Positions 26,017-41,267 of a stretch of DNA of 54,773 nt are shown here, piece after piece; within the stretch, counting starts at the first letter, position 1, and every line of letters starts with the position of its first letter. The DNA is from Candidatus Hodarchaeota archaeon (GTDB lineage Archaea > Asgardarchaeota > Heimdallarchaeia > Hodarchaeales > Hodarchaeaceae), in contig JAEOTM010000196.1 in NCBI GenBank assembly GCA_016839815.1, positions 1 through 54,773 on the forward strand, written 5' to 3'. The position numbers and the translations under genes were made by a program. The notes under the pieces were generated by a model. The model was not told the origin of the DNA. It did not search any database and saw nothing but the letters and a program-made list of their open reading frames with translations.

Positions 26017-26928
26017 ATGAGAAATATGAAAATCTCTCTAGTCGGTCTTAGCGGTTGTGGAAAAACGTCTATCTACTCAACTACATTTGGAGGAATGACT
26101 CCTTTAGAAGTTAAAGATCTTGGCCCTACAGTTATGTATGAAGTCAAAAGTCATAATTATCTTGGGATACAAGTTTCGTTGTGGGATTTTGGAGGTCAAG
26201 AGAAATATCGCCAAAGCTATTTGGAGACACCTAAGTTACTCGCAAATACATCAATTTTAGTTTTCGTTCTTGATCTTCATCATCCAGAAAACTTTGATTT
26301 GGCGAACGAGTACTTTGACAATGTCTATTCAGCGATTAAAGAGCAAGGCGGAGATCCTCGAATAAAAATCTTCTACCACAAATATGATACAGAGGAGTAC
26401 ACACAAGAAGCTCTTGACGAAAATCTTGCTAAGGCCAAAGAGCTCCCTTTTATTGTGAAATATACTCCTCGCGAATTTTTGACTTCAGTATATCGCCAGG
26501 AAGAGCTCAGTGAATTTCTGAAACAAATCCTAATCGCTGACTTTGAAGAGCTAAAGAAGAGCGTTGAAGGTGCACAGGAATTTTTATCAAAATTGAATTC
26601 TAAGATCATAATTACTGATGTTAATGGAAACGTGATTACACATAATATTGAAGGATTTGCTACTGGGATCCAACTCCGTGAGGATCTCAGAGAATATATT
26701 TTCGCCTGTAATGTCTTACGTGAAAACTTTCTCACTTCAGAATCTGCTTCTTTCTCTGCAAGTTCGGAAGTTAAGAAATTGAAGGTATATATCTATAATT
26801 ATGTTCTAACAGTATTAATAATGATGGATGAACAGGGGCCAGCTGATCCACCAGAATCTCTTAACGAGCTGTTAAAAGAGATGGAAATATTTGCAGAATT
26901 ACTTGTTGAGATGAGTAGTGAAGAATAA
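26017..26928 (+). CDS. Rag/Gtr-like small GTPase with C-terminal roadblock-like domain
   Basis: GLSGCGKTS, GPTV, WDFGGQEKY, HKYD, TSVY; C-terminal IIITDVNGNVI is roadblock-like. Confidence 0.85.
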   Translation: MRNMKISLVGLSGCGKTSIYSTTFGGMTPLEVKDLGPTVMYEVKSHNYLGIQVSLWDFGGQEKYRQSYLETPKLLANTSILVFVLDLHHPENFDLANEYFDNVYSAIKEQGGDPRIKIFYHKYDTEEYTQEALDENLAKAKELPFIVKYTPREFLTSVYRQEELSEFLKQILIADFEELKKSVEGAQEFLSKLNSKIIITDVNGNVITHNIEGFATGIQLREDLREYIFACNVLRENFLTSESASFSASSEVKKLKVYIYNYVLTVLIMMDEQGPADPPESLNELLKEMEIFAELLVEMSSEE

Positions 26929-27143: not shown

Positions 27144-27641
27144 GTGGTTACAGCAGAAGCTATAGATTCGACATTTCACGAGATACTGAACTCAAGGGAG
27201 AAAGAGAGAAAGCACCTGATTCCGATTTTGCAGGATGTGCAGAAGGAATATGGGTATTTGTCAAAGGAAAATATGTTTAGAATCAGTGAATATCTTGAAA
27301 TGTCACCAAATGAAGTATATGGGGTCGCTTCTTTCTATCAACAGTTTAAATTTATCAAACCTGGAAAACATACCATATCAGTATGTTTAGGCACCGCATG
27401 TTTCGTTAAAGGTGGAAATATTCTTGCAGAAACGGTTAAAACAAAATTAGGAATCGAACCAGGTGAAACTACTGAAGATGGATTATTTAGTTTTGAAAGA
27501 GTTGCATGTCTGGGCTGTTGTGCACTTTCTCCTGTGGTACAGATCGATGACGAAATTTATGGCCAAGTAAAGCCTTCAAAATTACTTCGTCTTATTAATC
27601 GGATGATTAAGAAGGAGAATCCTACGGAGGTACCTAAATGA
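27144..27641 (+). CDS. nuoE: NuoE/HydC-like [2Fe-2S] subunit
   Basis: LIPILQDVQ, VASFY, VCLGTAC, ACLGCCALSP. Confidence 0.9.
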   Translation: MVTAEAIDSTFHEILNSREKERKHLIPILQDVQKEYGYLSKENMFRISEYLEMSPNEVYGVASFYQQFKFIKPGKHTISVCLGTACFVKGGNILAETVKTKLGIEPGETTEDGLFSFERVACLGCCALSPVVQIDDEIYGQVKPSKLLRLINRMIKKENPTEVPK

Positions 27642-29476
27642 CACAAGTAGAATCACTACCTCGTTATTCTCAAAAGACAGTTCTAATATGTAAAGGAACT
27701 GGGTGCGTTTCAACTAAATCAGAAGAAATAAGTAAGGAGTTTGAGGAGCAGCTATTGAACTTTAACCTTCAGGATAAAATTAAGGTAGATTTCACGGGTT
27801 GCCATGGATTTTGTGCTCAGGGGCCTATAGTAATTGTTGAACCTGAAGGCATTATGTATGCTCAGGTTAAGACTCCAGACGTAACAAAGATCGTTAGTTC
27901 ACACCTCAAGGATGGAACTCCAGTCGAAGAGCTTTTTTTCACAGATCCAAAATTAAACAAACGCATTGCTAAGTATTCTGAAATTGATTTTTATAGTAAG
28001 CAAACTAGAATGATTTTGGGGAATTGTGGACATATTAATCCTGAAAACATCGATGCTTATATTGAAACAGGTGGCTATACAGGATTAAAAAAAGCCTTAG
28101 AGAAAACTCCAGAGGAAATCATCCAAATAATCAAAGATTCAGGGCTGAGAGGAAGAGGTGGTGCTGGTTTTTCGACTGGAATGAAATGGCAATTCTGTCA
28201 TGATGCTCCAGGGAGTCAAAAATACATAATATGTAATGCAGATGAAGGAGATCCTGGTGCATTTATGGATCGCTCCCTACTTGAAGCTGATCCCCATAGT
28301 GTATTAGAGGGGATGATTATTGGGGCATTTGCTATTGGTGCATCTCATGGAATTATTTATGTTCGTGCAGAATACCCTCTTGCAATCAAACGATTTAGTC
28401 GTGCCCTTGAAACTGCAAGAGAACGGGGATTTCTAGGAGAAAACATATTGAATTCAGGTTTTTCACTAGATGTTTCTGTGCATGAGGGTGCAGGAGCATT
28501 CGTCTGTGGAGAAGAAACAGCGTTAATGGCTTCTATCGAAGGAAATCGTGGTAATCCACGAACAAGACCTCCCTATCCAGCAACATCTGGGCTCTGGGGG
28601 AAACCTACGAATATTAATAATGTTAAAACATGGGCCTCTGCTTCATGGATATTTAAAAATGGATGGGAAAAATTCCATGAAATAGGAGTTGAAAACGCCA
28701 CAGGTACAGCAATTTTTTCATTAACTGGGAAAGTAAAAAACTTAGGTTTAATTGAAGTTCCTATGGGGACTCCTTTGAAAGACATTGTATTTGAAATTGG
28801 AGGTGGAATCCTTGATGATAGAGAATTCAAGGCCGTACAAACAGGTGGCCCCTCTGGAGGTTGTTTACCACCAAGTCACTTGGATTCTCCTGTTGATTAC
28901 GAAACTATGGCCGCTTCAGGAAGTATTATGGGTTCAGGAGGTATGATAGTTCTTGATGAAACCAATTGTATGGTGAAGCTAGCTCATTATTTCTTAACAT
29001 TTACACAAGCTGAATCTTGTGGAAAATGTATTCCATGTAGAATTGGTACAAGGGCTATGCTATTAATCTTAGAGAAGATTATTACAGGAAAAGGGGAAGA
29101 TAAGGATCTTATGCTCCTAGAAGAGCTTGCATATACTGTAAAAATGGGTTCTCTTTGTGCCTTAGGTCAAACTGCTCCAAATCCAGTATTAACAACACTC
29201 AAGTATTTCCGTAATGAATACCAATCTCATATTTTTGAAAAACGATGTAATTCTAAAGATTGTCAGGATCTAATTAACTATGTTATAGATGAAGAGTTTT
29301 GCAATGGATGTACAACCTGTGCACGCAATTGTCCCGTCAATGCAATTACAGGAGATAAGGGACAAGTCCACTTCATTGATATAGCAATCTGTGTTAAATG
29401 TGGTATTTGTCACTCAAGCTGTCCTAAAAATGCCATCTTTAAAGAAGATAGGCCATATGAGGTGGTGTCACAATGA
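27638..29476 (+). CDS. nuoF: NuoF/HydB-like FMN/NADH subunit with N-terminal thioredoxin-like FeS domain and C-terminal 2x[4Fe-4S]
   Basis: SGLRGRGGAGF, CNADEGDPGAFMDR, GEETAL, ESCGKCIPCR, CNGCTTC...CVKCGIC; architecture typical of bifurcating HydB. Confidence 0.92.
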   Translation: MTQVESLPRYSQKTVLICKGTGCVSTKSEEISKEFEEQLLNFNLQDKIKVDFTGCHGFCAQGPIVIVEPEGIMYAQVKTPDVTKIVSSHLKDGTPVEELFFTDPKLNKRIAKYSEIDFYSKQTRMILGNCGHINPENIDAYIETGGYTGLKKALEKTPEEIIQIIKDSGLRGRGGAGFSTGMKWQFCHDAPGSQKYIICNADEGDPGAFMDRSLLEADPHSVLEGMIIGAFAIGASHGIIYVRAEYPLAIKRFSRALETARERGFLGENILNSGFSLDVSVHEGAGAFVCGEETALMASIEGNRGNPRTRPPYPATSGLWGKPTNINNVKTWASASWIFKNGWEKFHEIGVENATGTAIFSLTGKVKNLGLIEVPMGTPLKDIVFEIGGGILDDREFKAVQTGGPSGGCLPPSHLDSPVDYETMAASGSIMGSGGMIVLDETNCMVKLAHYFLTFTQAESCGKCIPCRIGTRAMLLILEKIITGKGEDKDLMLLEELAYTVKMGSLCALGQTAPNPVLTTLKYFRNEYQSHIFEKRCNSKDCQDLINYVIDEEFCNGCTTCARNCPVNAITGDKGQVHFIDIAICVKCGICHSSCPKNAIFKEDRPYEVVSQ

Positions 29477-31083
29477 ATAAATGGATGAATATTAATGGGA
29501 GACGAGTTGTGTACGAAGAAGGTGAAACTGTACTTGAAGTTGCCACCAAAGCGGGAATTTACATCCCAACACTCTGTGCTAGGCCTGATCTCCCTTCATT
29601 TGGTGCCTGCAGACTTTGTATTATTGATGTAGAAGGAGCTCGTACCTATCCTAATTCCTGTACTCTACCAGCCAGAGAGGGTATGGTTGTAAGAACAGCA
29701 ACTCCAGATCTCCAAGCTGTTCGTCGAAATATATTCCAGTTAATCCTAGCGGAACATCCGAGCTATTGCATTATCTGTAAGGAACACGATGAGTGTGAAA
29801 AAGTCCGGCATGGTGAATATAAAGCTGGACGAGTTATTGGTTGTTTTACCTGTAGTAACAAAGAAATTTGTGAAATTCGTGAAATTTCTGAATATCTGAG
29901 GATAAAAGAAATTCGCTATCCAATGTTATACAAAAATATCCCCTTAGAACGTAATGATCCCTTCCTTGTGAGAGATTATAACCTTTGTATCCTGTGTGCA
30001 CGATGTGTACGTGCATGTCATGATGTTTTGGGATATAGTGCAATTGATTTGACAAAACGTGGACATGATACAAAGATAGGAACTATTCTAGAAGTTTCCC
30101 ATTTAGAAAGTGGATGTGTTTTTTGTGGTCATTGTATTGATGTATGCCCAACAGGTGCTCTCATCGCTCGTGGTTCAACATGGTTTGGTACTCCTGATAA
30201 ATCGGTCACGACTACTTGCAACCTTTGCTCACATGGCTGTCAAATGGTGATTGATGTAAAGTGGGAAAAAGTAGTAAATGTTCATCCTCCGTATGAGCTC
30301 TCAGCTCGACGTGAATACTGCGTAAAAGGACGATTCTGTATCCCGGCGTTATTAAATGGTCGTGATCGACTTAAATACCCAACTATCAAGCGAAAGATGA
30401 TAAAAGAGGAACATCATCCAGTTTCTTGGGATGAAGCAATCTCCCATACTGGCAGTCAATTGAAAAAATATAAACCCGAGGAAATTGGAGTAATCATTTC
30501 TCCCTCGTTAACTGATGAATCAGTATTTATGTTAACAAAGTTTGCTCAAAAAATCAGCGCCAACCCTCTCGTGTTTGAAGAGGAAGGTATCAGTCGTTTA
30601 CATTCTCAAGGAGTAAAAGCATTCGTGTCCACCTTTAGTTCACCCTTGTTTTCTAGACTTGAAGGATTAGAATTAGTCGTACTTCAAGATATTTACGAAT
30701 CACCAACTTCGGAATCTGCTGACGTTGTCTTACCCACGACAGTATTTACTGAGGAGAATGGGACGAAATCAGGGGAAGAATATATGAAATTCAACATCAA
30801 TAAAGCTGTAGAACCTCCAGGTGAAGCCATTCCTAGTTGGAGAATAATTATGCAAATAGCTCAGGCAATGGAGCTAGACGGTTTCAATTATAATACGATA
30901 GATGAACTACAGGACGAAATTATGAGTTCTAAACTCATAGAAATACCAAAAGTTCCAAAACAAAGTTTACAGTATATGGGAATACCTATTGCGGACAAAG
31001 TAGAGGAATTTCGACTATACATAACGACTAAACAGGCTATCAACCAATCGAATGGAAAAGGTGAAATCGATGTCCAAATTTAA
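29473..31083 (+). CDS. NuoG/HydA-N-like FeS subunit with truncated molybdopterin-oxidoreductase domain
   Basis: IPTLC, GACRLC, HPSYCIIC, CILCARC, CVFCGHC, CNLCSHGC...CVKG, ADVVLP; no H-cluster motifs; only 536 aa. Confidence 0.85.
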   Translation: MNKWMNINGRRVVYEEGETVLEVATKAGIYIPTLCARPDLPSFGACRLCIIDVEGARTYPNSCTLPAREGMVVRTATPDLQAVRRNIFQLILAEHPSYCIICKEHDECEKVRHGEYKAGRVIGCFTCSNKEICEIREISEYLRIKEIRYPMLYKNIPLERNDPFLVRDYNLCILCARCVRACHDVLGYSAIDLTKRGHDTKIGTILEVSHLESGCVFCGHCIDVCPTGALIARGSTWFGTPDKSVTTTCNLCSHGCQMVIDVKWEKVVNVHPPYELSARREYCVKGRFCIPALLNGRDRLKYPTIKRKMIKEEHHPVSWDEAISHTGSQLKKYKPEEIGVIISPSLTDESVFMLTKFAQKISANPLVFEEEGISRLHSQGVKAFVSTFSSPLFSRLEGLELVVLQDIYESPTSESADVVLPTTVFTEENGTKSGEEYMKFNINKAVEPPGEAIPSWRIIMQIAQAMELDGFNYNTIDELQDEIMSSKLIEIPKVPKQSLQYMGIPIADKVEEFRLYITTKQAINQSNGKGEIDVQI

Positions 31084-31960
31084 AATTTTAAATAAAGAAG
31101 AATTTGTACCAAATTTTTACAAACTAGAAATCATAGTTCCTGGGATTGCAAAAAAAGCAAAAGCAGGTCAATTTATTTTAGTGATGGTTGATGAGCATTC
31201 AGAGAAAATTCCTTTAACTTTGCTTGATTGGGACAAAGAGAAAGGAACAATTTCCTTCATTGTCCAAGAACTGGGATTATCTACTTCAAAGATGGCTTTC
31301 ATGGAAGAGGGCGACTCTTTCTATAGTATTGTTGGTCCGCTTGGAGAACCAGCATATTTGGATAACTTTGGTACAGTTGTATTAGGAGGAGGATGTTATG
31401 GGGTAGGTGCGGTTTTTCCCATTGCAAAAGAGCTAAAAGCACTTGGTAATTACGTTATAACCATAATTGAAGCCAAAAATGAAAATCTTCTGTACTACGA
31501 GGAAGAGTATAGAACAGTGAGTGATGAGGTAATTCTTGTCACTACTGACGGATCTAAAGGTGAGCGAGGACACATTTATGATGTTCTTGACAATATGATT
31601 GAGGTTCAAAATCGAAAGATCGATCATATTAAGGTAATTGGCTGTAATGTTATGATGAGTAAAGTTTCGAAGCTTACAAAAGAGAAAGGTGCTATTCCAA
31701 CTTATGCGACAGTTACCACAATAATGGTGGATGGAACAGGTATGTGTGGGAGTTGTCGTTTGTCATATGATGGAAAAACAAAGTTTGCGTGTGTGGATGG
31801 ACCAGAATTTGATGCCCATAAAATAGATTGGGAAGAATTAATACAAGTCCGTAACACATCCTATATTACAGATGAAACACTGGGCTTACAGAACTTTTCT
31901 CCCGAATGTCGATCTTTAGCTAAATTTCAGGAAAGAATAAAGGAAGAAGAAGCATCATGA
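31070..31960 (+). CDS. nfnA: NfnA/SudB small subunit of Nfn-type transhydrogenase (start ATG 31070)
   Basis: AGQF, EKIPLT, GPLG, MVDGTGMCGSCR, ACVDGPEFD; GGTGA upstream. Confidence 0.88.
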   Translation: MSKFKILNKEEFVPNFYKLEIIVPGIAKKAKAGQFILVMVDEHSEKIPLTLLDWDKEKGTISFIVQELGLSTSKMAFMEEGDSFYSIVGPLGEPAYLDNFGTVVLGGGCYGVGAVFPIAKELKALGNYVITIIEAKNENLLYYEEEYRTVSDEVILVTTDGSKGERGHIYDVLDNMIEVQNRKIDHIKVIGCNVMMSKVSKLTKEKGAIPTYATVTTIMVDGTGMCGSCRLSYDGKTKFACVDGPEFDAHKIDWEELIQVRNTSYITDETLGLQNFSPECRSLAKFQERIKEEEAS

Positions 31961-33690
31961 AATCTAAAGAGCGAATGCAAATTCCTTTTACAGATATGCC
32001 TACTCAACCTCCTCAGGTTCGGGCTAAAAATTTTCGTGAAGTTCCCTATGGTTATACTGAAGAGATGGCAATCCAAGAAGCAAATCGTTGTTTGAATTGT
32101 AAAAAACCAAAATGTGTAGAAGGATGTCCTGTTCGTGTTCCTATTCCCGAATTTATTTCTTTAGTACAGGAAGGTAAGTTTTTAGAGGCTGCATGGACAA
32201 TTAAAGAGAAGAATGTTCTACCTGCAGTTTGTGGCCGAGTTTGTCCTCAAGAAAGCCAATGTGAAGAAAAATGTATACGAAGTAAGAAAGGACGATCAGT
32301 AGGAATCGGTAATCTTGAGAGATTTGTAGCCGACTATGAAAGACTTAGTGGAAATATTCCAGAACCTACACGTGTGAGGAAAAATGGAAAAAAAGTCGCA
32401 ATTGTTGGGAGTGGCCCTTCGGGACTCACTACTGCTGGAGATTTAATACAACAGGGGTATGAAGTAACAGTCTATGAGGCTTTTCATCTCGGTGGGGGAG
32501 TTCTGGTATATGGTATCCCTGAGTTTAGATTGCCAAAATCAGTTGTTCAATATGAAATTCAGAATCTGGAGAATGCTGGGGTTAAATTTGTCTATGATTC
32601 CGTTATCGGGAGAATTAGAGGAATTGACGAATTGCTTTCCGAAGATGGGTATGATGCAGTTTATCTTGGAGTAGGAGCAGGTTTACCTGTATTTATGAAC
32701 ATACCAGGAGAAAATCTACAAGGAGTCTATTCAGCAAACGAATATTTAACACGTTCAAATCTCATGAAGGCATATCTTTTTCCTGATTATAACACGCCTA
32801 TCTTGACAGGAAAAAATGTTGTTGTTGTTGGGGGTGGAAATGTTGCAATGGACTCTGCAAGGACAGCATTGAGATTAGATGCTGATAATGTATATATTGT
32901 ATATCGTAGGTCAAGAGAGCAGATGCCTGCTAGATTAGAAGAAGTTCATCACGCAGAAGAGGAGGGAGTGCAATTTAAACTATTATCCAATCCAGTAGAA
33001 ATAATGGGTGACGAAAAAGGTCGAATTGAATCAATCAGATGTCAAAGATACCAGCTAGGTGAGCCTGATAAATCAGGTCGTGCCAGACCCGTTCCGATCG
33101 ATGGTGATTATTTTGTGCTAAATACAGATTTAATAATCATTGCGATAGGTAATAAAGCCAATCCCCTAATTACAATGACCACACCGGATTTAGAAGTTAA
33201 TAAGTGGGGAAATATTGTAACAGATGAATTAGGAAGGACAAGTAAACCATTTGTGTATGCTGGTGGGGATATAGTGACTGGTGCTGCTACTGTGATTTCA
33301 GCAATGGGTGCTGGTAGACGTGCTGCTACAGCTATTCATGAAGATCTCTTTCCCCCAACTGAGGAGCCTTCTGAGACCCTTAGTGTTCCTAAAGTTGCGT
33401 TAGAATTAAAACGCGCAACAATCTATCCTAATACTGTTTATTTAAGGCTTAATATTGTGAATTCATCTGAAAAAGAACTGGATCAGGTAAAAATACGAAT
33501 ATCACATGTTCATGAGTTCTTTGAAACAACCATGTTTGAGAAAACGATTCCACGCTGGTCTCCTGCTGAAGAACAAGAAATTGATTGTCCTCGTATAGAC
33601 CAAAACGAAAAAGAATATCTTCTTACAATAAATGATCTTCATGGTAAGATTCTATCAAAAATCATTATTGCTGAAGATGTTAAAAAATAA
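31957..33690 (+). CDS. nfnB: NfnB/SudA (GltD-like) large subunit with an extra ~110-aa C-terminal extension
   Basis: RCLNCKKPKCVEGCP, GRVCPQESQC, GSGPSG, YGIPEFRLP, GGGNVAMD, GGDIVTGAATVI; extension follows AIHEDLFPP. Confidence 0.9.
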   Translation: MKSKERMQIPFTDMPTQPPQVRAKNFREVPYGYTEEMAIQEANRCLNCKKPKCVEGCPVRVPIPEFISLVQEGKFLEAAWTIKEKNVLPAVCGRVCPQESQCEEKCIRSKKGRSVGIGNLERFVADYERLSGNIPEPTRVRKNGKKVAIVGSGPSGLTTAGDLIQQGYEVTVYEAFHLGGGVLVYGIPEFRLPKSVVQYEIQNLENAGVKFVYDSVIGRIRGIDELLSEDGYDAVYLGVGAGLPVFMNIPGENLQGVYSANEYLTRSNLMKAYLFPDYNTPILTGKNVVVVGGGNVAMDSARTALRLDADNVYIVYRRSREQMPARLEEVHHAEEEGVQFKLLSNPVEIMGDEKGRIESIRCQRYQLGEPDKSGRARPVPIDGDYFVLNTDLIIIAIGNKANPLITMTTPDLEVNKWGNIVTDELGRTSKPFVYAGGDIVTGAATVISAMGAGRRAATAIHEDLFPPTEEPSETLSVPKVALELKRATIYPNTVYLRLNIVNSSEKELDQVKIRISHVHEFFETTMFEKTIPRWSPAEEQEIDCPRIDQNEKEYLLTINDLHGKILSKIIIAEDVKK

Positions 33691-33699
33691 ATACCGAGT

Positions 33700-34098
33700 T
33701 TACCTTAGTTCAAGCGTATTGAATGCTGCGATAATGTCATGTGTGGTAATTATACCCACTAAATCATGAGTAGTCGGATCTTTTACTGGGATTCGTTTAA
33801 TCTTTTTTCGGTACATTGTAACAAGGGCATGTTCGATAGTATCATTCGGTGCGATTGTTATTAAACCCTTGGTTGCAATTTCCCTTGTTTGTACTTCACA
33901 CAAGTCTCTACAGTCGGTAATGACCTTTCGTACAATATCACGTTCTGTGATAATTCCAATAACAGTAGAATCTTCGTAGACTAAGACTGAACCAATATTT
34001 TTTTCCATCATTAATTCGGATGCATAAATTACGCTTTTATCACCACTGACAGTTATTAAACCTCTAGTCATTAAGTCTTTAACCTTTGTTACATTCAA
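33700..34098 (-). CDS. Stand-alone CBS-pair protein
   Basis: VKDLMT, IGSVLV, GIITERD, IKRIPV, GIITTHD. Confidence 0.9.
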   Translation of the reverse strand: MNVTKVKDLMTRGLITVSGDKSVIYASELMMEKNIGSVLVYEDSTVIGIITERDIVRKVITDCRDLCEVQTREIATKGLITIAPNDTIEHALVTMYRKKIKRIPVKDPTTHDLVGIITTHDIIAAFNTLELR

Positions 34099-34115
34099 TT
34101 TATATCCCCTTATCC

Positions 34116-35147
34116 TTAAATTCTCTTTATTTTCAAAGTTTCTTCTTCATCCTCAATTTTAAGTAAATATCGTATTCCGTCTTCCTTTTCAGGTGTGAAT
34201 TCAAATTTATTCACCTCATCTTGGTCCCATTGCTCAAATTTTCTTACCAACTTATCCTTTCCAAAAAAACCATGTGATTCATAAATACGGATAACGATAT
34301 TTTCTAAACTGAATGGAGATGTATTTTTCAATGAAATCGTTACTAATTCATCTCCCCGATTGATGGATACAATCTTGATTGTTTTCTGTTTTCCTCGTGC
34401 ATCTTCTTCATTAGTTTGACCAATAACCTTACCATCTTTACTTCTTGGGATGGCAAATCTTAATTTCTTTTTCGGGATTGTACTTACAGTAGAATCTTTA
34501 CTTCTATTAATTACAGTTTTTATTTTTCGTTTTTTTTCTTCCTGGAAAAATGGTTCAAGCTTGCTAAGGGGTGTATTTGGAGTTAATGATTGACAAATTT
34601 TAGTTAATTCTTCTTCGACTAACTTAACATTCTCTGGAGAGAAATCTTCACTTTCATTCCTTTTTGAAGATTCAAGCTGGTATCTCACAAGATAGCAGAG
34701 GTGAGTACTAAAATTCTCCTTTATTTGTTGATAAAATTCCTGTAAGATTTCCTGAGCAATAAAAGAGACTTCTGAAGGAGCTTTTACAATAAGAATGAAC
34801 CTCTCTTTTTGCCATTTCTTTGCTTTCATACCTGACCTTTGTTTCAGCCGTTGTGCATCACATTCGAAGAGAGTAGCTGAATATACTACACCACTAAGTT
34901 CAAGATCCATAGTAGAAAATTTTTCTGATTTAAGAAATTGTTCTTGATGCCACCATGCTGGATGAATTGCTAGAATGGCTATTTCATTTTCATTCGACAT
35001 GAGGATTTTTGGGTAAGTGAACAAGAGAGAATGACCCTGTAATTCATCATAAAAATAGATAAAAAAGCCAAAAGAGCGATCTTTAACCTGTAGATGAAAT
35101 GAATCAATAGGATTTGATTTCCCATTTGGCAAAGAAAAGGTCTCCAA
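34116..35147 (-). CDS. Longin/uDENN-like protein with C-terminal beta-rich domain (paralog B)
   Basis: FFIYFYDELQGHSLLFTYP N-terminal pattern; C-terminal domain shared with 35228-36196 and the NfnB tail. Confidence 0.65.
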   Translation of the reverse strand: METFSLPNGKSNPIDSFHLQVKDRSFGFFIYFYDELQGHSLLFTYPKILMSNENEIAILAIHPAWWHQEQFLKSEKFSTMDLELSGVVYSATLFECDAQRLKQRSGMKAKKWQKERFILIVKAPSEVSFIAQEILQEFYQQIKENFSTHLCYLVRYQLESSKRNESEDFSPENVKLVEEELTKICQSLTPNTPLSKLEPFFQEEKKRKIKTVINRSKDSTVSTIPKKKLRFAIPRSKDGKVIGQTNEEDARGKQKTIKIVSINRGDELVTISLKNTSPFSLENIVIRIYESHGFFGKDKLVRKFEQWDQDEVNKFEFTPEKEDGIRYLLKIEDEEETLKIKRI

Positions 35148-35227
35148 ATTTTTATGTAAATACCCAAATTCAAATTGATTAACTTTTCATTTCAAAATTT
35201 AGGATTTAATCTTTTCCTGTGGCTATT

Positions 35228-36196
35228 TTATAACTTTTTATCTGTAGGGACAATATCCAATGATTTAATTGCTATTGTTTGGTTTTTACTGGTAATTTTT
35301 ATCATATACCCTTCCAAATTTGTAGAGCGTGGGAATTCAAGAATTAAATCCTCTTTTAGAGGCCATTCCTCAAGATCTTGTTCCCATAAATTCTCACTGA
35401 AAAATTCTGTTTTCTTAGACACTTTAATTTTTACTTCTTCTAAGGTCTCTAATTGATTAACTAATATAACTAAAACTTCTTCACCACGTTCTTCGGTGTG
35501 CAAGATACGCATTGTAATTGGGTTTTTATATAAATTCTTTCTAGGAGACTCTTGTGAGAATGCGTGAATCGAAGATGATGAAATTGACAGATCTTGCGAG
35601 GCAAAAAATGGTTTAGTTTTAGATATCGTGTTACCTAGATTTTCCCACACAATAGTAAGGGCTTTTCCGATTTCATCTGCTTTACCTGTTAGTTCTAAGT
35701 ATTTGCGTCTTTTTGTGGGATTAAGTTTCAGGATTTGTCGTTTATACAGGAGTTCGATATCTGAGAGGTAGTTTTCTTGCAGATCGTCACGAAATTGGTC
35801 TAGGGAATCAGGATGAACAGAATCTCCATCTTTCCAAATCTTTAATACAATTCCAAATATGGGTTTTTCTACTGTGGTAGTCACATCTTGTTTATGGGAA
35901 TTTGAACCATGTAATTGAAGTGCAGAGTATACAAATTCAGAAATCTTGAGATCTATTCGCATAGGATTGTGTTCAACTTTCCAGATATAATGTGTTTTCA
36001 AAATATCATGTTCTTCAGAGCTTTTACGTAAATTTGTAGGGATAGAGTAAAGAATTTGGAGACCAAATGTTGTATCAAACGAACATAAATAAAATCCAAT
36101 CAAACTCGGAGAAAATGTATGAGACTTGGTTGTTTTTTCCAGCAATGTAGAATTCTTACTAAAAGGATCTAAATTCATTGTATTTGCTGCCATCAA
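35228..36196 (-). CDS. Longin/uDENN-like protein with C-terminal beta-rich domain (paralog A)
   Basis: GFYLCSFDTTFGLQILYSIP N-terminal pattern; IDLKISEFVYSA matches MDLELSGVVYSA in its neighbour. Confidence 0.65.
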   Translation of the reverse strand: MMAANTMNLDPFSKNSTLLEKTTKSHTFSPSLIGFYLCSFDTTFGLQILYSIPTNLRKSSEEHDILKTHYIWKVEHNPMRIDLKISEFVYSALQLHGSNSHKQDVTTTVEKPIFGIVLKIWKDGDSVHPDSLDQFRDDLQENYLSDIELLYKRQILKLNPTKRRKYLELTGKADEIGKALTIVWENLGNTISKTKPFFASQDLSISSSSIHAFSQESPRKNLYKNPITMRILHTEERGEEVLVILVNQLETLEEVKIKVSKKTEFFSENLWEQDLEEWPLKEDLILEFPRSTNLEGYMIKITSKNQTIAIKSLDIVPTDKKL

Positions 36197-36419: not shown

Positions 36420-38252
36420 TTGGAATCAAAAATATGGGATGTCATATGCGTGGGAGGTGGCCCTGCCGGGCTTTCGTGTGCAATTCGGGCTGCAGAATTA
36501 GGAAGAAGTGTTCTTGTCCTTGAAGCTAGATCTGGATCGGCTACTGCAGGTAGTATGATGGTTGATGGTTATCCAGGTTTTTTTAGCATAACTCGTCAAG
36601 AATTACTGGATAAAATGGCCAGACAAGCGAAGTATCATGCTACAATCAGATATGCGGAGAAAGTAAGCCGACTAGAACTCGAAGGAAATATAAAACGGGT
36701 TTATTCAACGGTAGTACGGGGCGAATTTTTCTCTGAGGAGATTATGTACGAAGGTAAAACAGTATTAATTGCCACTGGATTACACCCGAAGAAACTTAAT
36801 GTTCCTGGAGAACGAAAATTCCGTTCTAAGGGAATTTATTATAATAATCCTCCAGAGGGGGAATATGAAGAAAAAAATGTTATCATCATTGGTCATAATT
36901 CATGGGCTGTTCGTAATGCTCTTCATTATGATTCAGTAGGAGCACATGTCAGCTTAATTACTGCTAGAAGCACCTTTGATGCTCATCCCGCCTTATTAAG
37001 AAGATTGAACGAGAGTTTTGTAGATATTCGTTTTGGACATGAAGTCATTTCATTTGAGGGTGAGTTAAAAGTTAAAAAAGTGAATTTGAAAAGTCCTGCA
37101 GGTGAGAAGGTTTCGATATTAACTGATATTGTAGTCATTCTAAGTAGTAAAATAAAAAATCGTGAATTATTCATGAATGCTGGCTTAGCCATTACACCTG
37201 AAGGAAAGATCATCATAAACTCAGCAAATCAGGATACTAATCTTTCTGGAGTATTTGCTGCGGGAAGTGCGATAAGAGGAGATTCTATTGTGGGTATTGA
37301 TGCAGCAGAAGGACAAACTGCGGCAATGCAGATTTCTCGACATCTTACCGATCTAGAAAAAGAAGAAAGTGTTTCACAACCAGAAAAATTAACGACTACA
37401 TTAGAACAAAGATTTGTTGAAGGTAAAAGTGTGATTTTGGAAAAGGTTGATCTCTCTACAGAAATAATCAAATGGGTCGTGGAGGCTCCTCGTATTGCAG
37501 AAAAATGTCAACCTGGACAATTTGTCATTATACGTATAAATGATTATGGTGAAAGAATTCCTCTAACAATTGCTGATTTTGATAGGGATGCAGGAACGAT
37601 TACCCTTATTTTTCAGAAAATAGGGAAGAGTACAAAACTAATGGGTAAATTAAAGACGGGAGATCATATTTTGAATTTACTCGGTCCGCTAGGTGCACCA
37701 GTGAAAATTGAAAAGTGGGGAACAGTTGCAGTATTAGGTGGAGGATGTGGAGTTGCACCTGTATTACCGAAAACAAAAGCGATGAGAGAAATTGGAAATT
37801 ATGTGGTAAGTATCATTTCCGCTCGAACAGGATCCCTCCTAATTTGCCAAGATGATATGAAAGAAGCCAGTGATGAATTACACATTGCTACAGATGACGG
37901 TACATTAGGTCACCACGGATTTGGACTGGATTTACTGCAAAAATTCATCAATGAAGGGAGAAAGTTCGATCATGTGGTAGCTGTAGGACCTATCCCTATG
38001 ATGAGGGCCGTTGTAAATTTCACAAAGAAGCATAATATTCCCACTATAGTGTCTTTAGCTCCCTTAATGGTGGATGGAACAGGAATGTGTGGAGCCTGTC
38101 GTGTTACTGTGGGGGGTAAAGTGAAGTTTGCATGTGTAGACGGACCAAACTTCGATGGATTAAAGGTTGATTTTGATGAATTAACTCTTCGGTCACGAGC
38201 ATATCGTTATGAGGAACGAATCTCACTAGAACATATGTCACGTACAAATTAA
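36420..38252 (+). CDS. Fusion of thioredoxin-reductase-like flavoprotein and NfnA/SudB
   Basis: GGGPAG, LIATG, GVFAAG (TrxB fold), then PGQF, ERIPLT, MVDGTGMCGACR, ACVDGP in one reading frame. Confidence 0.85.
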   Translation: MESKIWDVICVGGGPAGLSCAIRAAELGRSVLVLEARSGSATAGSMMVDGYPGFFSITRQELLDKMARQAKYHATIRYAEKVSRLELEGNIKRVYSTVVRGEFFSEEIMYEGKTVLIATGLHPKKLNVPGERKFRSKGIYYNNPPEGEYEEKNVIIIGHNSWAVRNALHYDSVGAHVSLITARSTFDAHPALLRRLNESFVDIRFGHEVISFEGELKVKKVNLKSPAGEKVSILTDIVVILSSKIKNRELFMNAGLAITPEGKIIINSANQDTNLSGVFAAGSAIRGDSIVGIDAAEGQTAAMQISRHLTDLEKEESVSQPEKLTTTLEQRFVEGKSVILEKVDLSTEIIKWVVEAPRIAEKCQPGQFVIIRINDYGERIPLTIADFDRDAGTITLIFQKIGKSTKLMGKLKTGDHILNLLGPLGAPVKIEKWGTVAVLGGGCGVAPVLPKTKAMREIGNYVVSIISARTGSLLICQDDMKEASDELHIATDDGTLGHHGFGLDLLQKFINEGRKFDHVVAVGPIPMMRAVVNFTKKHNIPTIVSLAPLMVDGTGMCGACRVTVGGKVKFACVDGPNFDGLKVDFDELTLRSRAYRYEERISLEHMSRTN

Positions 38253-38258
38253 GGAGTC

Positions 38259-39680
38259 TTGAACAATATGAGTGAAGAACGGGAAAAAAGAAAACAAAAA
38301 ATAAAGAAAAAACGTACCCACATGAGTGTTCAAGAATCTCGTGAGCGGATTCGTAATTTCAACGAGGTTGCTCTTGGGTACACTGCGGAAGAAGTTCTCG
38401 AGGAAGCATCACGCTGTTTGAAATGCAAGAAACCCCGGTGTGTAAAAGGCTGTCCTGTAAATGTTCAAATTCCTGAATTCATTGAAAAAATACTTGAGAA
38501 TGATATTAATGGCGCGAAAGATATTATTCTCTGTACTAATAGTCTTCCAGCTATAACAGGACGAGTATGTCCACAAGAAAACCAGTGTCAAGAATTTTGC
38601 ATTCATCCTAATGCAATTTCCATTGGTAATTTAGAACGATATGTAGCTGATAATGGACAGATTGGAGAAAGACAAACAAAAAGTGATCTTGGAACAAAAG
38701 TTGCAGTTATTGGTTCTGGCCCCTCAGGATTGACGTGTGCAGCTGAACTCGCAACATTAGGCCATAACGTGACTGTTTATGAAGCACTACACGAATACGG
38801 TGGTGTTCTTACTTATGGTATTCCAGAATTTCGGATGCCAAAATCCATTGTTAATGAAGAGATTGAATCTGTCATGGCTTTAGGGGTAAAATTTGAAAAA
38901 GATGTGCTTGTTGGGAGAACAATTACTGTAAATGAGCTTTTAGAGAAACATCAATGTAATGCAGTTTATGTTGCCTCAGGAGCAGGAACACCGAATTTTC
39001 TGGGAATTCCTGGAGAAAATTTCAATGGAGTTTTTTCTGCAAATGAATTTCTTACTCGAGTTAACCTATTGAAAGGATACCAATTTCCAGATTTCGATAC
39101 ACCAGTAACCATCGGGGAAAAAGTAGCTGTTATTGGAGCTGGGAATGTTGCTATGGATTGTGCTCGGACTTCTCTTCGGTTAGGTGCACGAGAGGTCGAT
39201 ATTATCTATCGTCGATCCGAAGGAGAAATACCAGCTCGTTTAGAAGAAATAATTCACGCTAAAGATGAGGGAGTCGTAATTGGAGAATTAACATCGCCCT
39301 TAGAGATAATCGGAGATAATAAAGGGAATGTGGTGGGTCTTAAATGCATGAAAATGGATCTAGGAGAGAAAGATGCCTCTGGTCGTAGAAGACCGATTCC
39401 AATTCCAGAAACAGAGTTTATTTTTCCTGTGGATACAGTGATTATTGCTATTGGTCAACGCCCTAATCAACTGATAGCTCAAACAACTGAAGGACTGGAG
39501 ATTACTAAGTGGGGGACGTTTGTTCATAATGAAGAAACTGGAGCAACAACACGGGAAAGAATTTTTTGTGGAGGAGATGTAGCAACAGGTGCAGCAACAG
39601 TGATACTTGCTATGGAGGCTGGACGAAAAGCAGCTAAAGCAATTCACGAAATGATTCTAGAGAAAGATCTACAAGGGTAG
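38259..39680 (+). CDS. nfnB: Second NfnB/SudA large subunit, no C-terminal extension (start may be ATG 38268)
   Basis: RCLKCKKPRCVKGCP, GRVCPQENQC, YGIPEFR, GAGNVAMD, GGDVATGAATVI. Confidence 0.9.
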   Translation: MNNMSEEREKRKQKIKKKRTHMSVQESRERIRNFNEVALGYTAEEVLEEASRCLKCKKPRCVKGCPVNVQIPEFIEKILENDINGAKDIILCTNSLPAITGRVCPQENQCQEFCIHPNAISIGNLERYVADNGQIGERQTKSDLGTKVAVIGSGPSGLTCAAELATLGHNVTVYEALHEYGGVLTYGIPEFRMPKSIVNEEIESVMALGVKFEKDVLVGRTITVNELLEKHQCNAVYVASGAGTPNFLGIPGENFNGVFSANEFLTRVNLLKGYQFPDFDTPVTIGEKVAVIGAGNVAMDCARTSLRLGAREVDIIYRRSEGEIPARLEEIIHAKDEGVVIGELTSPLEIIGDNKGNVVGLKCMKMDLGEKDASGRRRPIPIPETEFIFPVDTVIIAIGQRPNQLIAQTTEGLEITKWGTFVHNEETGATTRERIFCGGDVATGAATVILAMEAGRKAAKAIHEMILEKDLQG

Positions 39681-39853: not shown

Positions 39854-40351
39854 ATGAAAGAAAAATGGCAAGTTGTACCAAAAAGGGTGGGGAGAAGTAG
39901 AAAGATTCAAGTCCGCCAATTTGAACCTGAAGAGATATTTATTGAATTTGAATTACATGTAAATGATCCAGATTCCACTCAGGATGCTATAGACGAAGCA
40001 ACACAATTAGCTATTGCCTATCTTGATGCCGAAGAAAAACGATTACGCAAATCTCCTGAGTCCAAACCTCAAGTGAAATCACCTAAACAAAGTGTAAAGA
40101 AGGAATTTACAATACAAATCACAGATGAGGGGAAAAAATTAGGGAAATTCAATATTAACAGATCAAATGATGTTCAATTTGAAAATTTTGTCCATTTATG
40201 GCTTGAAATTGATAATGAAAAGATATATGTCGGATATCTTAGAAAAGATATTGGAGATTTTACAATAAAGGACAAAAATAAGAGTCTTCTAGAGAAGTAT
40301 GGTGTCCAAAGAGGAAAGCATTTTAGAATAATGCAAAAATTAAGTACCTAA
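39854..40351 (+). CDS. Hypothetical protein
   Basis: 165-aa ORF with GGTGA SD; two apparent domains joined by a Lys/Pro/Ser linker. Confidence 0.65.
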   Translation: MKEKWQVVPKRVGRSRKIQVRQFEPEEIFIEFELHVNDPDSTQDAIDEATQLAIAYLDAEEKRLRKSPESKPQVKSPKQSVKKEFTIQITDEGKKLGKFNINRSNDVQFENFVHLWLEIDNEKIYVGYLRKDIGDFTIKDKNKSLLEKYGVQRGKHFRIMQKLST

Positions 40352-40376
40352 ATTGTCACCAAGTTGGGATGAGAAA

Positions 40377-41267
40377 ATGGATCGACAAAGTCGGCATGCA
40401 GGTAGTTGGTATGAAGGTTCGAAAAAAACCTTATCACAACAGATTCATAATTTATTTCTTGACAAACAATGGGGTTATGGAGCGGATCCTCTTGAGAATT
40501 TAGATGATAGGGAATTTGACCCCCATCTTATTGGAATAGTTTCTCCCCATGCAGGATACGTTTATAGTGGACCTATTGCTTCTCATGGGTTTGCAGAAGT
40601 GTTTAAACGGCTGGAGAAAATTGACACAATTGTAATTTTAGGCCCTAATCATCAAGGATTAGGTGCACCCATTTCACTCTATCCTGATGGGCAATGGCAC
40701 AATCCTCTCGGATCTGTGAGTATTGATACGGAGTTTATTGAATATGCTAAGAAGTATGATTTTGGTTCCCTCCAAGGACGAATTGGGTTTGAACGACTTG
40801 CACATGTGAATGAACATTCGATCGATATCCAACTCCCTTTCTTACAGTATCTCTACAAAGGCCAGTTTAAGATTGTACCAATTTGCATTGGAGATCAGTC
40901 TTTTGATCCAACGGTTTCCACACTTTCAGCATTTTTAAAAGATTATATAAGCTCCCATTCAGAAAAAAGAATTCTAGTAGTAGCTAGTAGTGATTTCTCA
41001 CATGAACATAATTATGATCTTGTTGTCAAGAACGATAAGACGATGTTATCCTATTTGGAATCTATGAATCTACAAGAAGCTGAACAATTCAGACAAAGAA
41101 TAAGAATGACCATGTGCGGATATGCCCCCATATTCACCCTTATTCAGACCGCAAAAAATTTGGGGAATCCGTCAGTTCAGGTTCTAAAATACGCGAACAG
41201 CACGGATATACGACCAGGAGGAGGTTATACGGTCGGTTACGCGAGTATTCTAGTTAGATCATCTTAA
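40377..41267 (+). CDS. MEMO1-family protein (AmmeMemoRadiSam protein B)
   Basis: AGSWY, SPHAGYVYSG, GPNH, EHSIDIQLPFLQ, ASSDFSH, TMCG, VGYAS. Confidence 0.92.
   Translation: MDRQSRHAGSWYEGSKKTLSQQIHNLFLDKQWGYGADPLENLDDREFDPHLIGIVSPHAGYVYSGPIASHGFAEVFKRLEKIDTIVILGPNHQGLGAPISLYPDGQWHNPLGSVSIDTEFIEYAKKYDFGSLQGRIGFERLAHVNEHSIDIQLPFLQYLYKGQFKIVPICIGDQSFDPTVSTLSAFLKDYISSHSEKRILVVASSDFSHEHNYDLVVKNDKTMLSYLESMNLQEAEQFRQRIRMTMCGYAPIFTLIQTAKNLGNPSVQVLKYANSTDIRPGGGYTVGYASILVRSS

Follow-up and report, generated by a model that had tools for sequence, protein, structure and literature searches.

An Ig-like C-terminal domain common to a redox flavoprotein and two longin proteins in a Rag GTPase gene cluster of Asgard archaea

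By sequence comparison, the C-terminal tail of an NfnB-type iron–sulfur flavoprotein and the C-termini of two neighboring longin proteins are homologous and represent one domain of about 95 residues, which is called DOM here. The three proteins are encoded side by side on contig JAEOTM010000196.1 of a Candidatus Hodarchaeota archaeon (GenBank assembly GCA_016839815.1). The contig was analyzed over its whole stretch of 54,773 nucleotides, referred to as the window, and belongs to a metagenome-assembled genome (MAG) with a completeness of 89.5% and an estimated contamination of 7.8%. Judged by the source names attached to close homologues, the genome belongs to Hodarchaeales (Heimdallarchaeia, Asgard archaea). 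The longin proteins are named P2 (product of 34116-35147) and P3 (product of 35228-36196). Asgard family-level groups are given f-numbers, species genomes G-numbers, and loci of relatives L-numbers, and gene fusions are written with a double colon. With a probability of roughly 55%, and on comparative grounds, DOM serves its bearers as a common module for assembly or recruitment, by which an enzyme of the ferredoxin/NAD(P)H type joins a Rag GTPase/longin complex. The strongest argument is the replacement of one redox enzyme by another at the locus with DOM retained, followed by synteny, a fusion to CBS domains, and the rarity of DOM. Beyond the Nfn enzyme and the longins, the system also contains, from its sequences, a GTPase of the Rag/Gtr family, a CBS protein, and a third DOM bearer that is possibly arrestin-like.

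DOM in NfnB, P2, and P3

The tail-bearing NfnB is encoded at 31957-33690 (+) and comprises 577 residues. Its core (residues 1-465, 31957-33351) consists of a Fer4_20 domain (E 8.6e-43) followed by FAD/NAD(P)H Rossmann domains (Pyr_redox_2, E 2.2e-36, both Pfam). The NCBIfam model TIGR01316 gives 597.7 bits (cut-off 471.75), with a match that ends at residue 463. Pfam and NCBIfam models for NfnB/GltA alike stop around residues 463-465, and the approximately 110 residues beyond have no assignment. They start with a Pro/Glu-rich linker (33352-33399) that has no family match and varies among the ten orthologues of the NfnB::tail fusion. DOM follows at 33400-33687 (residues 482-577), as delimited by alignments, independent hidden Markov model (HMM) scores, and substitution rates. 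In P2 it covers residues 248-343 (34119-34406, -), and in P3 residues 220-322 (35231-35539, -).

A first-pass annotation of the window, made from the sequence alone, had proposed the shared domain. Its coordinates for the open reading frames of NfnB, P2, P3, and the second NfnB of the window agree with ours, and the three-way alignment reproduces both the L-x12-FF-x11-W-x3-E spacing it described and the Lys nine residues after Y-x3-I. Positions L23, I28, F36, F37, W49, E53, P60, Y69, I73, and K83 are invariant in this alignment. In BLASTP the NfnB tail matches P2 with E 2e-4 and P3 with E 2e-6. HMMs built solely from FrhB-, P2-, or P3-borne copies of other genomes recognize NfnB tails with 26-91 bits (E 3e-9 to 1e-29). 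The window's own genome contains exactly three copies of DOM. A search of that genome also bears out the earlier statement that the second NfnB (gene start 38259) lacks the tail. Ordinary NfnB likewise ends without one, as that annotation had stated, since both the family models and the nearest relatives stop after the core.

It is extremely improbable that the similarity is due to chance or composition, or that the NfnB extension is an artefact of assembly or annotation. The low pairwise identity among the three DOMs of the window (just 21-28%) and the contamination estimated for the MAG would fit such an explanation. Chance and compositional similarity are ruled out by the E-values of the independent profiles, which go down to 1e-29. 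An assembly chimera, a concern already raised in the first-pass annotation, or a misannotation is ruled out by full-length NfnB::tail frames of 581-588 residues in ten species genomes of the genus, which are 69-100% identical across residues 1-577. The ratio of nonsynonymous to synonymous substitution rates (dN/dS) is 0.06-0.12 for the tail versus 0.02-0.04 for the core, both approximate values as dS is high. Judged by these ratios, the tail is under purifying selection, which likewise tells against an artefact.

Fold of the domain

In the AlphaFold2 (AF2) models of P2 and P3, DOM takes on a seven-strand immunoglobulin (Ig)-like β-sandwich with strands at residues 257-342 of P2 and 227-315 of P3. 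Together with the Ig-like structural matches, this upholds the earlier suggestion of a β-rich, Ig-like module. The predicted local distance difference test (pLDDT) score of the sandwich lies mostly between 66 and 91 (means of 10-residue blocks), and the mean over the whole protein is 69 for P3 and 72.8 for P2. Both models share one architecture, in which an N-terminal ββ-α-βββ-αα domain is followed by long helices, a disordered linker directly before DOM, and the sandwich. The sandwich matches many Ig-like domains with Z scores of 8-10.8 and none of them specifically. Matches of the P2 DOM include 9i25_C (Z 10.8) and 1ksh_B, which is PDEdelta in complex with Arl2 (Z 9.3). RhoGDI2 (Z 7.2) is also among the matches of the sandwich.

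The residues invariant across all DOM bearers are N, F, W, and Y, and an aromatic pair [FL]-F is conserved at the start of the fourth strand. No Pfam model reached its threshold on any DOM among the NfnB, P2, P3, and FrhB tails scanned. The NfnB tail shows a weak match to DUF2393 (E 0.017, 15.6 bits, cut-off 26). The DOM profile also weakly matches CARDB/NPCBM_assoc-type repeats of giant, probably surface-located proteins. Membership in CARDB was dropped, since a comparison of the DOM profile with a CARDB segment in hhalign was not significant (probability 1.35%, E 0.038). As the first-pass annotation had supposed, no description of DOM was found in Pfam or in the papers searched.

Exchange of the redox enzyme within the genus

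Each of the other 21 species genomes of the genus matches the DOM profile, in most cases with three copies that lie in a cluster. Among the 22 genomes, the third DOM bearer besides the longins is an FrhB/FdhB-like iron–sulfur flavoprotein in 12 and NfnB in 10; none has both. The FrhB-like bearer is a protein of approximately 490-510 residues that combines a 2x[4Fe-4S] domain with FrhB_FdhB_N/C and carries DOM at its C-terminus (e.g., L032:8854-10329, with FrhB_FdhB_C at E 2e-43 and FrhB_FdhB_N at E 7e-21). At the loci fetched, the FrhB-like::DOM gene or the NfnB::DOM cassette occupies the same place, between the Rag and the CBS genes. The NuoEFG-like/NfnAB cassette is restricted to the NfnB-type subclade of the genus.

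Searches in both directions point to an exchange of the enzymes. The window genome has no FrhB-like orthologue, and when it is searched with the FrhB-like protein only the tail finds a match, namely the tail of NfnB (36% identity, E 3e-9). Conversely, no orthologue of the tail-bearing NfnB core was found in the three FrhB-type genomes searched (G007, G009, and G010), where the best match is the orthologue of the tail-less second NfnB (NfnB2) at 53-55% identity. Outside the genus, the nearest NfnB cores belong to other Heimdallarchaeia families (66-72% identity) and end at query position 466-479 without a tail. From these comparisons, one redox enzyme has been replaced by another at the locus and DOM has been carried over. 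The FrhB/FdhB-like flavoprotein is the widespread and probably ancestral bearer. The link between Nfn and DOM that had been proposed for the window is the derived state of one subclade.

The NfnB tails score highest with the FrhB tails of the genus (49-57 bits; P2 tails give 33-41 and P3 tails 26-35 bits) and have 14 invariant positions in common with them. In a maximum-likelihood tree of 84 DOMs, which is a quick search over 102 columns, the NfnB tails form one clade with a Shimodaira–Hasegawa-like approximate likelihood ratio (SH-aLRT) support of 99. This clade falls together with FrhB and P3 tails into a group without internal resolution. The tree therefore does not identify the donor of the NfnB tail, and the HMM scores favor the FrhB tails.

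Two genomes of the genus, G001 and G016, have kept FrhB-like::DOM and have lost CBS, P2, P3, TrxR::NfnA, and NfnB2, apparently as a block. The solitary gene of G001 is found in locus L034 (G001:C4:32001-50000). Its DOM gives no signal of relaxed constraint, with 51% identity in DOM compared to 71% in the core, a ratio as in other lineages. Like G001 and G016, G004 gave no match to a Rag orthologue, at a completeness of 74%. In G007 (5.9 Mb), two additional, unlinked P2-like::DOM paralogues are present (L036:8585-9610, -, on contig C6, and L037:8093-9115, -, on contig C41).

Distribution and synteny across Asgard archaea

With a profile of 43 rows, DOM is detected in 178 of 400 Asgard species genomes. 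Some families have it in nearly every member, and others, among them most further Heimdallarchaeia families, hardly have it at all. A Rag orthologue (threshold E <= 1e-55) occurs together with DOM in 150 of the 400 genomes, and both are found in the same nine families (f1, f13-f17, f20, f21, and f32). In no named family does the Rag orthologue occur without DOM, and both are absent from most of the remaining families.

The gene order is conserved beyond the genus. Rag orthologues of 42-49% identity adjoin FrhB-like::DOM genes in seven other families. The genes for CBS, P2-like::DOM, FrhB-like::DOM, Rag, and a further DOM bearer, X385::DOM, are co-directional in f13, f14, f15, and f17. The DOM-bearing genes and Rag are also clustered in f21 and f32, where no CBS match was obtained. 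In all four f20 genomes inspected, Rag directly follows FrhB::DOM, and X385::DOM lies nearby. The CBS gene adjoins the P2-like gene in f1, f13, f14, and f15. In f17, and by frame length in f16, the two are fused into one protein of 631-645 residues that consists of a P2-like longin, DOM, and four CBS domains (e.g., protein P0106, L056:10776-12671, -). The f17 fusion is an argument for joint action of P2 and the separate CBS protein in the window.

X385 is a family of about 380-400 residues outside the window's genus, with a C-terminal DOM and conserved Cys residues. Its gene adjoins Rag in f13-f15, f17, f20, f21, and f32, and its 11 members include L054:8069-9241 (-), L062:5808-6971 (+), and L068:6424-7620 (+). 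Eight of the 11 match Arrestin_C over nearly the full profile, with a best E of 8.4e-4; the members scanned individually reach 14-18 bits against a cut-off of 27.7 and cover profile positions 7-136 of 137. From this sub-threshold match, X385 is possibly arrestin-like. X385 was also considered as a counterpart of P3; hhalign of its N-terminus against the N-termini of P2 and P3 gave no similarity, and by sequence it is not one.

Some clusters contain additional genes. A gene for 670-870 residues stands between P2-like::DOM and FrhB-like::DOM in f13 and f14 (L054:12058-14079, L061:9429-12044, and L055:10123-12654, all -); the two proteins scanned have a peptidase C25 (gingipain-like) and a CarboxypepD_reg domain. 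In f20, a gene for about 160 residues follows the P2-like::DOM gene or genes (L058:10683-11177, +; L066:9620-10096, +; same place in L059, L063, and L067), and the two products scanned are GNAT acetyltransferases.

Worldwide, DOM is rare. Among 1.84 billion proteins, 80 representative clusters match at E <= 1e-3, and the stronger matches scanned are FrhB-like proteins and the P2-like::CBS fusion. Homologues of FrhB::DOM come from MAGs labeled Hel-, Frey-, Hod-, Heimdall-, Loki-, Odin-, Sigyn-, and Thorarchaeota and are annotated only as F420 hydrogenase beta-subunit domain.

Longin proteins P2 and P3

P2 (343 residues, 34116-35147, -) and P3 (322 residues, 35228-36196, -) are paralogues over their full length (BLASTP E 2e-8), and hhalign of their N-termini gives a probability of 98.3% (E 1.7e-14). 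The longin domain and the subsequent helices, assigned from structural matches, cover residues 24-192 of P2 (34572-35078, -) and 29-196 of P3 (35609-36112, -). The N-termini of both AF2 models fit the longin topology ββ-α-βββ-αα. According to DSSP, P3 has strands at residues 32-41 and 45-52, a helical region at 54-72, strands at 79-82, 88-95, and 113-121, and helices at 129-157 and 160-193; P2 is analogous.

P2, for which Foldseek candidates were realigned, matches NPRL2 in GATOR1 (9v0j_A, Z 9.8, 131 residues, 3.0 Å; 7t3b_B, Z 9.7), FLCN (8dhb_J, Z 9.7), FNIP2 (6ulg_N, Z 9.0), and SEA-complex chains (8adl_S and 9h4q_T, Z 9.4-9.6). P3 was scanned against 48,161 chains independently of Foldseek. 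Its best six are FNIP2 (6ulg_N, Z 10.2), the SEA-complex chain 8adl_S (Z 10.2), GATOR1 8fw5_B (Z 10.1), a Lokiarchaeota longin, Lst4 (4zy8_C, Z 9.4), and FLCN, all within Z 9.2-10.2. Other longins reach Z 7.4-8.6 with P3, and the margin of the longins with GTPase-activating protein (GAP) function toward Rag is just 1-2 Z. On these models, the N-termini of P2 and P3 are longin domains, closest by a small margin to Rag-GAP longins. The two proteins had been called longin/uDENN-like, of which the longin part stands on topology and structural matches. As to the DENN part, neither Pfam nor fold searches gave a DENN or dDENN match C-terminal to the longin domain.

Pfam NPR2 and Folliculin do not match P2 or P3 at E <= 1. 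Profile searches of PDB sequences with P2 and P3 yielded nothing or chance matches to capsid proteins. No longin, NPRL, or FLCN chain was returned, and thus the relation to NPRL2/FLCN rests on the fold. A Gly-Pro motif before longin strand 2 has been defined (PMC12290439). At the corresponding position, the P2 family has an invariant G-H and the P3 family G-L, which retain the Gly without the Pro. A loop S-x-R-x-K-x-R-[SA]-G-[ML] is conserved among P2-like proteins in every Asgard family examined, and P3 does not have it. In P2 this loop carries R100, K102, and R104 (34836-34850, -) and is a candidate for an arginine finger equivalent to NPRL2 Arg78 or FLCN Arg164.

Gene organization of the window

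The Rag/Gtr1-family GTPase (26017-26928, +, 303 residues) matches Pfam Gtr1_RagA (PF04670) with E 6.5e-21 and 75.3 bits against a cut-off of 22. It is followed by abutting or overlapping genes for NuoE-like, NuoF-like, NuoG/formate dehydrogenase-like, and NfnA proteins (27144-31960, +) upstream of NfnB, with Pfam matches to 2Fe-2S_thioredx, Complex1_51K, Fer2_4/Molybdopterin, and DHODB_Fe-S_bind. In the NuoG/formate dehydrogenase-like subunit (29473-31083, +), the iron–sulfur domains are present and the molybdopterin domain is found by Pfam in fragments only; the subunit is probably an electron relay without a catalytic site. The NfnA-type gene (31052-31960, +; DHODB_Fe-S_bind, E 2.2e-13) overlaps the start of NfnB. 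With this partner gene adjoining, the 577-residue protein is assigned as an NfnB/SudA/GltD-type iron–sulfur flavoprotein, and electron-bifurcating activity is a prediction only.

On the opposite strand, P3, P2, and a CBS-pair protein (33700-34098, -, 132 residues, Pfam CBS E 7.4e-26) form an operon in which CBS is the last gene. Divergent from P3 lie a TrxR-like::NfnA fusion (36420-38252, +, 610 residues) and the tail-less NfnB2 (38259-39680, +, 473 residues), both assigned by Pfam. This pair adjoins P3 across the locus-bearing genus genomes fetched, whichever enzyme bears DOM. Downstream of NfnB2 are an uncharacterized 165-residue gene and a Memo-like gene (39854-41267, +), which keep their position in all genus genomes inspected, even in those without the longin block.

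Proposed function and alternatives

Homology, fold class, synteny, replacement of the enzyme with the domain retained, and purifying selection are established here. DOM marks the proteins of a conserved Asgard cluster that centers on a Rag/Gtr-family GTPase. Its usual bearers are the FrhB/FdhB-like [4Fe-4S] flavoprotein, one or two Rag-GAP-like longins, and, outside the genus, the possibly arrestin-like protein of about 390 residues; the CBS-pair protein is encoded next to the longin protein or fused to it. In one subclade of the genus, the NuoEFG-like/NfnAB cassette has taken the place of the FrhB-like gene, and NfnB now bears DOM. As a recruitment module, the domain would bring the redox enzyme, both longins, and the CBS protein into one complex, which probably also includes the Rag-like GTPase, either through contacts between DOMs or through the docking of each DOM on one common partner. 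In this way, the GTPase switch could respond to the redox or energy state. From the comparative evidence, we infer physical binding, the identity of the partners, and a signaling role. A co-fold of full-length P2 and P3 with the NfnB tail scored 0.00 in a run without controls and weighs neither way on binding.

Several observations speak against this proposal. In f20, P2-like::DOM is separated from the FrhB::DOM-Rag pair by 13-45 kb or sits on a different contig. FrhB-like::DOM of f9 occurs without P2 or P3, and no Rag orthologue was detected there, nor was one detected in G001 and G016, which have lost the longins. As FrhB-like::DOM stands alone in some genomes, DOM has some role that is independent of longins. 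The invariant residues of DOM look structural, and no conserved interface was identified among them. Related genomes are furthermore not independent of each other, which makes the phyletic match between DOM and Rag weaker than the raw counts suggest.

DOM could instead be a domain of effectors or regulators that binds the Rag GTPase, with each bearer docking singly, no contacts between DOMs, and the enzyme as a client or effector of the GTPase. PDEdelta and RhoGDI bind small GTPases through Ig-like sandwiches, and both are among the matches of DOM. The tightest and most widespread pair in the clusters is FrhB::DOM directly followed by Rag (f13, f14, f15, f17, f20, f21, and f32), and the phyletic patterns of DOM and Rag match. 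We nevertheless consider it unlikely, because dozens of unrelated Ig-like domains match at least as well as PDEdelta and RhoGDI do and FrhB::DOM persists without a Rag orthologue in G001, G016, and f9. It overlaps with the recruitment module in that both place the proteins in one complex. From the same resemblance to PDEdelta and RhoGDI, and from the conserved [FL]-F pair, DOM might be read as a small-molecule or lipid sensor with a pocket like the PDEdelta/UNC119/RhoGDI cavity that gives all bearers a common ligand input. The resemblance is generic, however, and about 95 residues are few compared to lipid-binding sandwiches of 140-150 residues, which leaves this option very improbable.

A further possibility is that DOM acts separately in each protein, in homo-oligomerization, stabilization, or binding to the membrane or a cell structure, and that its sharing reflects local duplication or shuffling without any link between enzyme and longins. 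Ig-like sandwiches often serve as general-purpose appendages, weak matches of the profile extend to the repeats of giant proteins, and the domain is still conserved in genomes that have FrhB::DOM alone. What remains unexplained is that NfnB gained and kept a tail exactly when it replaced FrhB::DOM, although its close relatives work without one, and that DOM is nearly confined to cluster members among the 1.84 billion representatives; we find such independent roles doubtful.

The recruitment module can be extended to a tentative, rather speculative picture in which DOM is the glue of an archaeal proto-Rag complex. The flavoenzyme would be a stoichiometric subunit, and redox sensing together with adenylate sensing by the CBS domains would control a longin GAP that sets the nucleotide state of Rag. 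P2, with its Arg loop, would be the GAP, paired with P3 or another DOM partner such as the possibly arrestin-like protein. GATOR1/FLCN nutrient sensing would then have a pre-eukaryotic relative in this complex, which receives redox and energy input, not amino acids.

Rag GTPases and longin-type GAPs form the core of eukaryotic nutrient sensing, and the locus offers a concrete, testable answer to what their Asgard homologues do and sense. In nine family-level groups, the cluster combines a GTPase of the Rag type and longins that resemble Rag GAPs with a CBS sensor and a redox flavoenzyme, and three of the proteins share one private domain. The swap from the FrhB-like enzyme to NfnAB with DOM carried over is a natural experiment, and evidence of this kind usually signals physical partnership. 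If the recruitment module proves true, archaeal redox metabolism would be linked to a GTPase switch, and research on eukaryogenesis would gain a defined complex to reconstitute.

Comparison with known systems

DOM resembles the CARDB/NPCBM_assoc/DUF11 E-set domains in its seven strands and in an N-x-[SG] signature that ends the second strand. It differs in its placement on redox enzymes and longins instead of giant repeat proteins and has no recognized secretion-related domain beside it. The “ear” or appendage platforms of adaptins represent the same concept, in which a flexible linker ends in a small β-sandwich that brings partners to a core complex. This is an analogy only, and Pfam GAE-type matches are far below threshold (E 0.08).

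The enzyme of the window corresponds to NfnAB/SudAB, the NADH-dependent ferredoxin:NADP+ oxidoreductase, in its TIGR01316 match, its Fer4_20 and Pyr_redox_2 core, and the NfnA-type gene upstream. It is distinguished by 112 additional C-terminal residues of linker and DOM, which are present neither on NfnB2 nor on the closest Heimdallarchaeia relatives.

Asgard longins of the NPRL2-like and FLCN/SMCR8 types have been published (Liu et al., bioRxiv 10.1101/2020.10.19.343400; Traffic 2025, PMC12290439). They are structurally near eukaryotic GAP longins, as are P2 and P3, and Rag or Arf-related GTPases have been put forward as their targets. A keyword search of the main text of Liu et al. returned no FrhB, F420, CBS, or β-sandwich, and the portion of PMC12290439 covered mentions no operon with a redox enzyme. 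The main texts searched do not report the shared sandwich, the FrhB-like/NfnB partner, or the gene cluster; the NPRL2-like/FLCN-type longins of Asgard archaea were already known.

A close parallel is found in the heterodimers GATOR1 (NPRL2-NPRL3) and FLCN-FNIP/Lst7-Lst4. P2 and P3 differ from them by the absence of a sequence match to Pfam NPR2/Folliculin or to a PDB chain, by the Gly-Pro motif that is not kept, and, in the models, by an Ig-like sandwich where the DENN or the NPRL2-specific C-terminal domain stands. The likeness lies in two paralogous longins that are encoded side by side near a Rag/Gtr GTPase and whose best structural matches are these very proteins (Z 9.2-10.2 over 125-141 residues). 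The asymmetry between P2, which has the phylum-wide Arg/Lys loop, and P3, which does not, recalls the split into a catalytic and a noncatalytic partner in NPRL2/NPRL3 and FLCN/FNIP, and a GAP activity of P2 is predicted by this analogy only.

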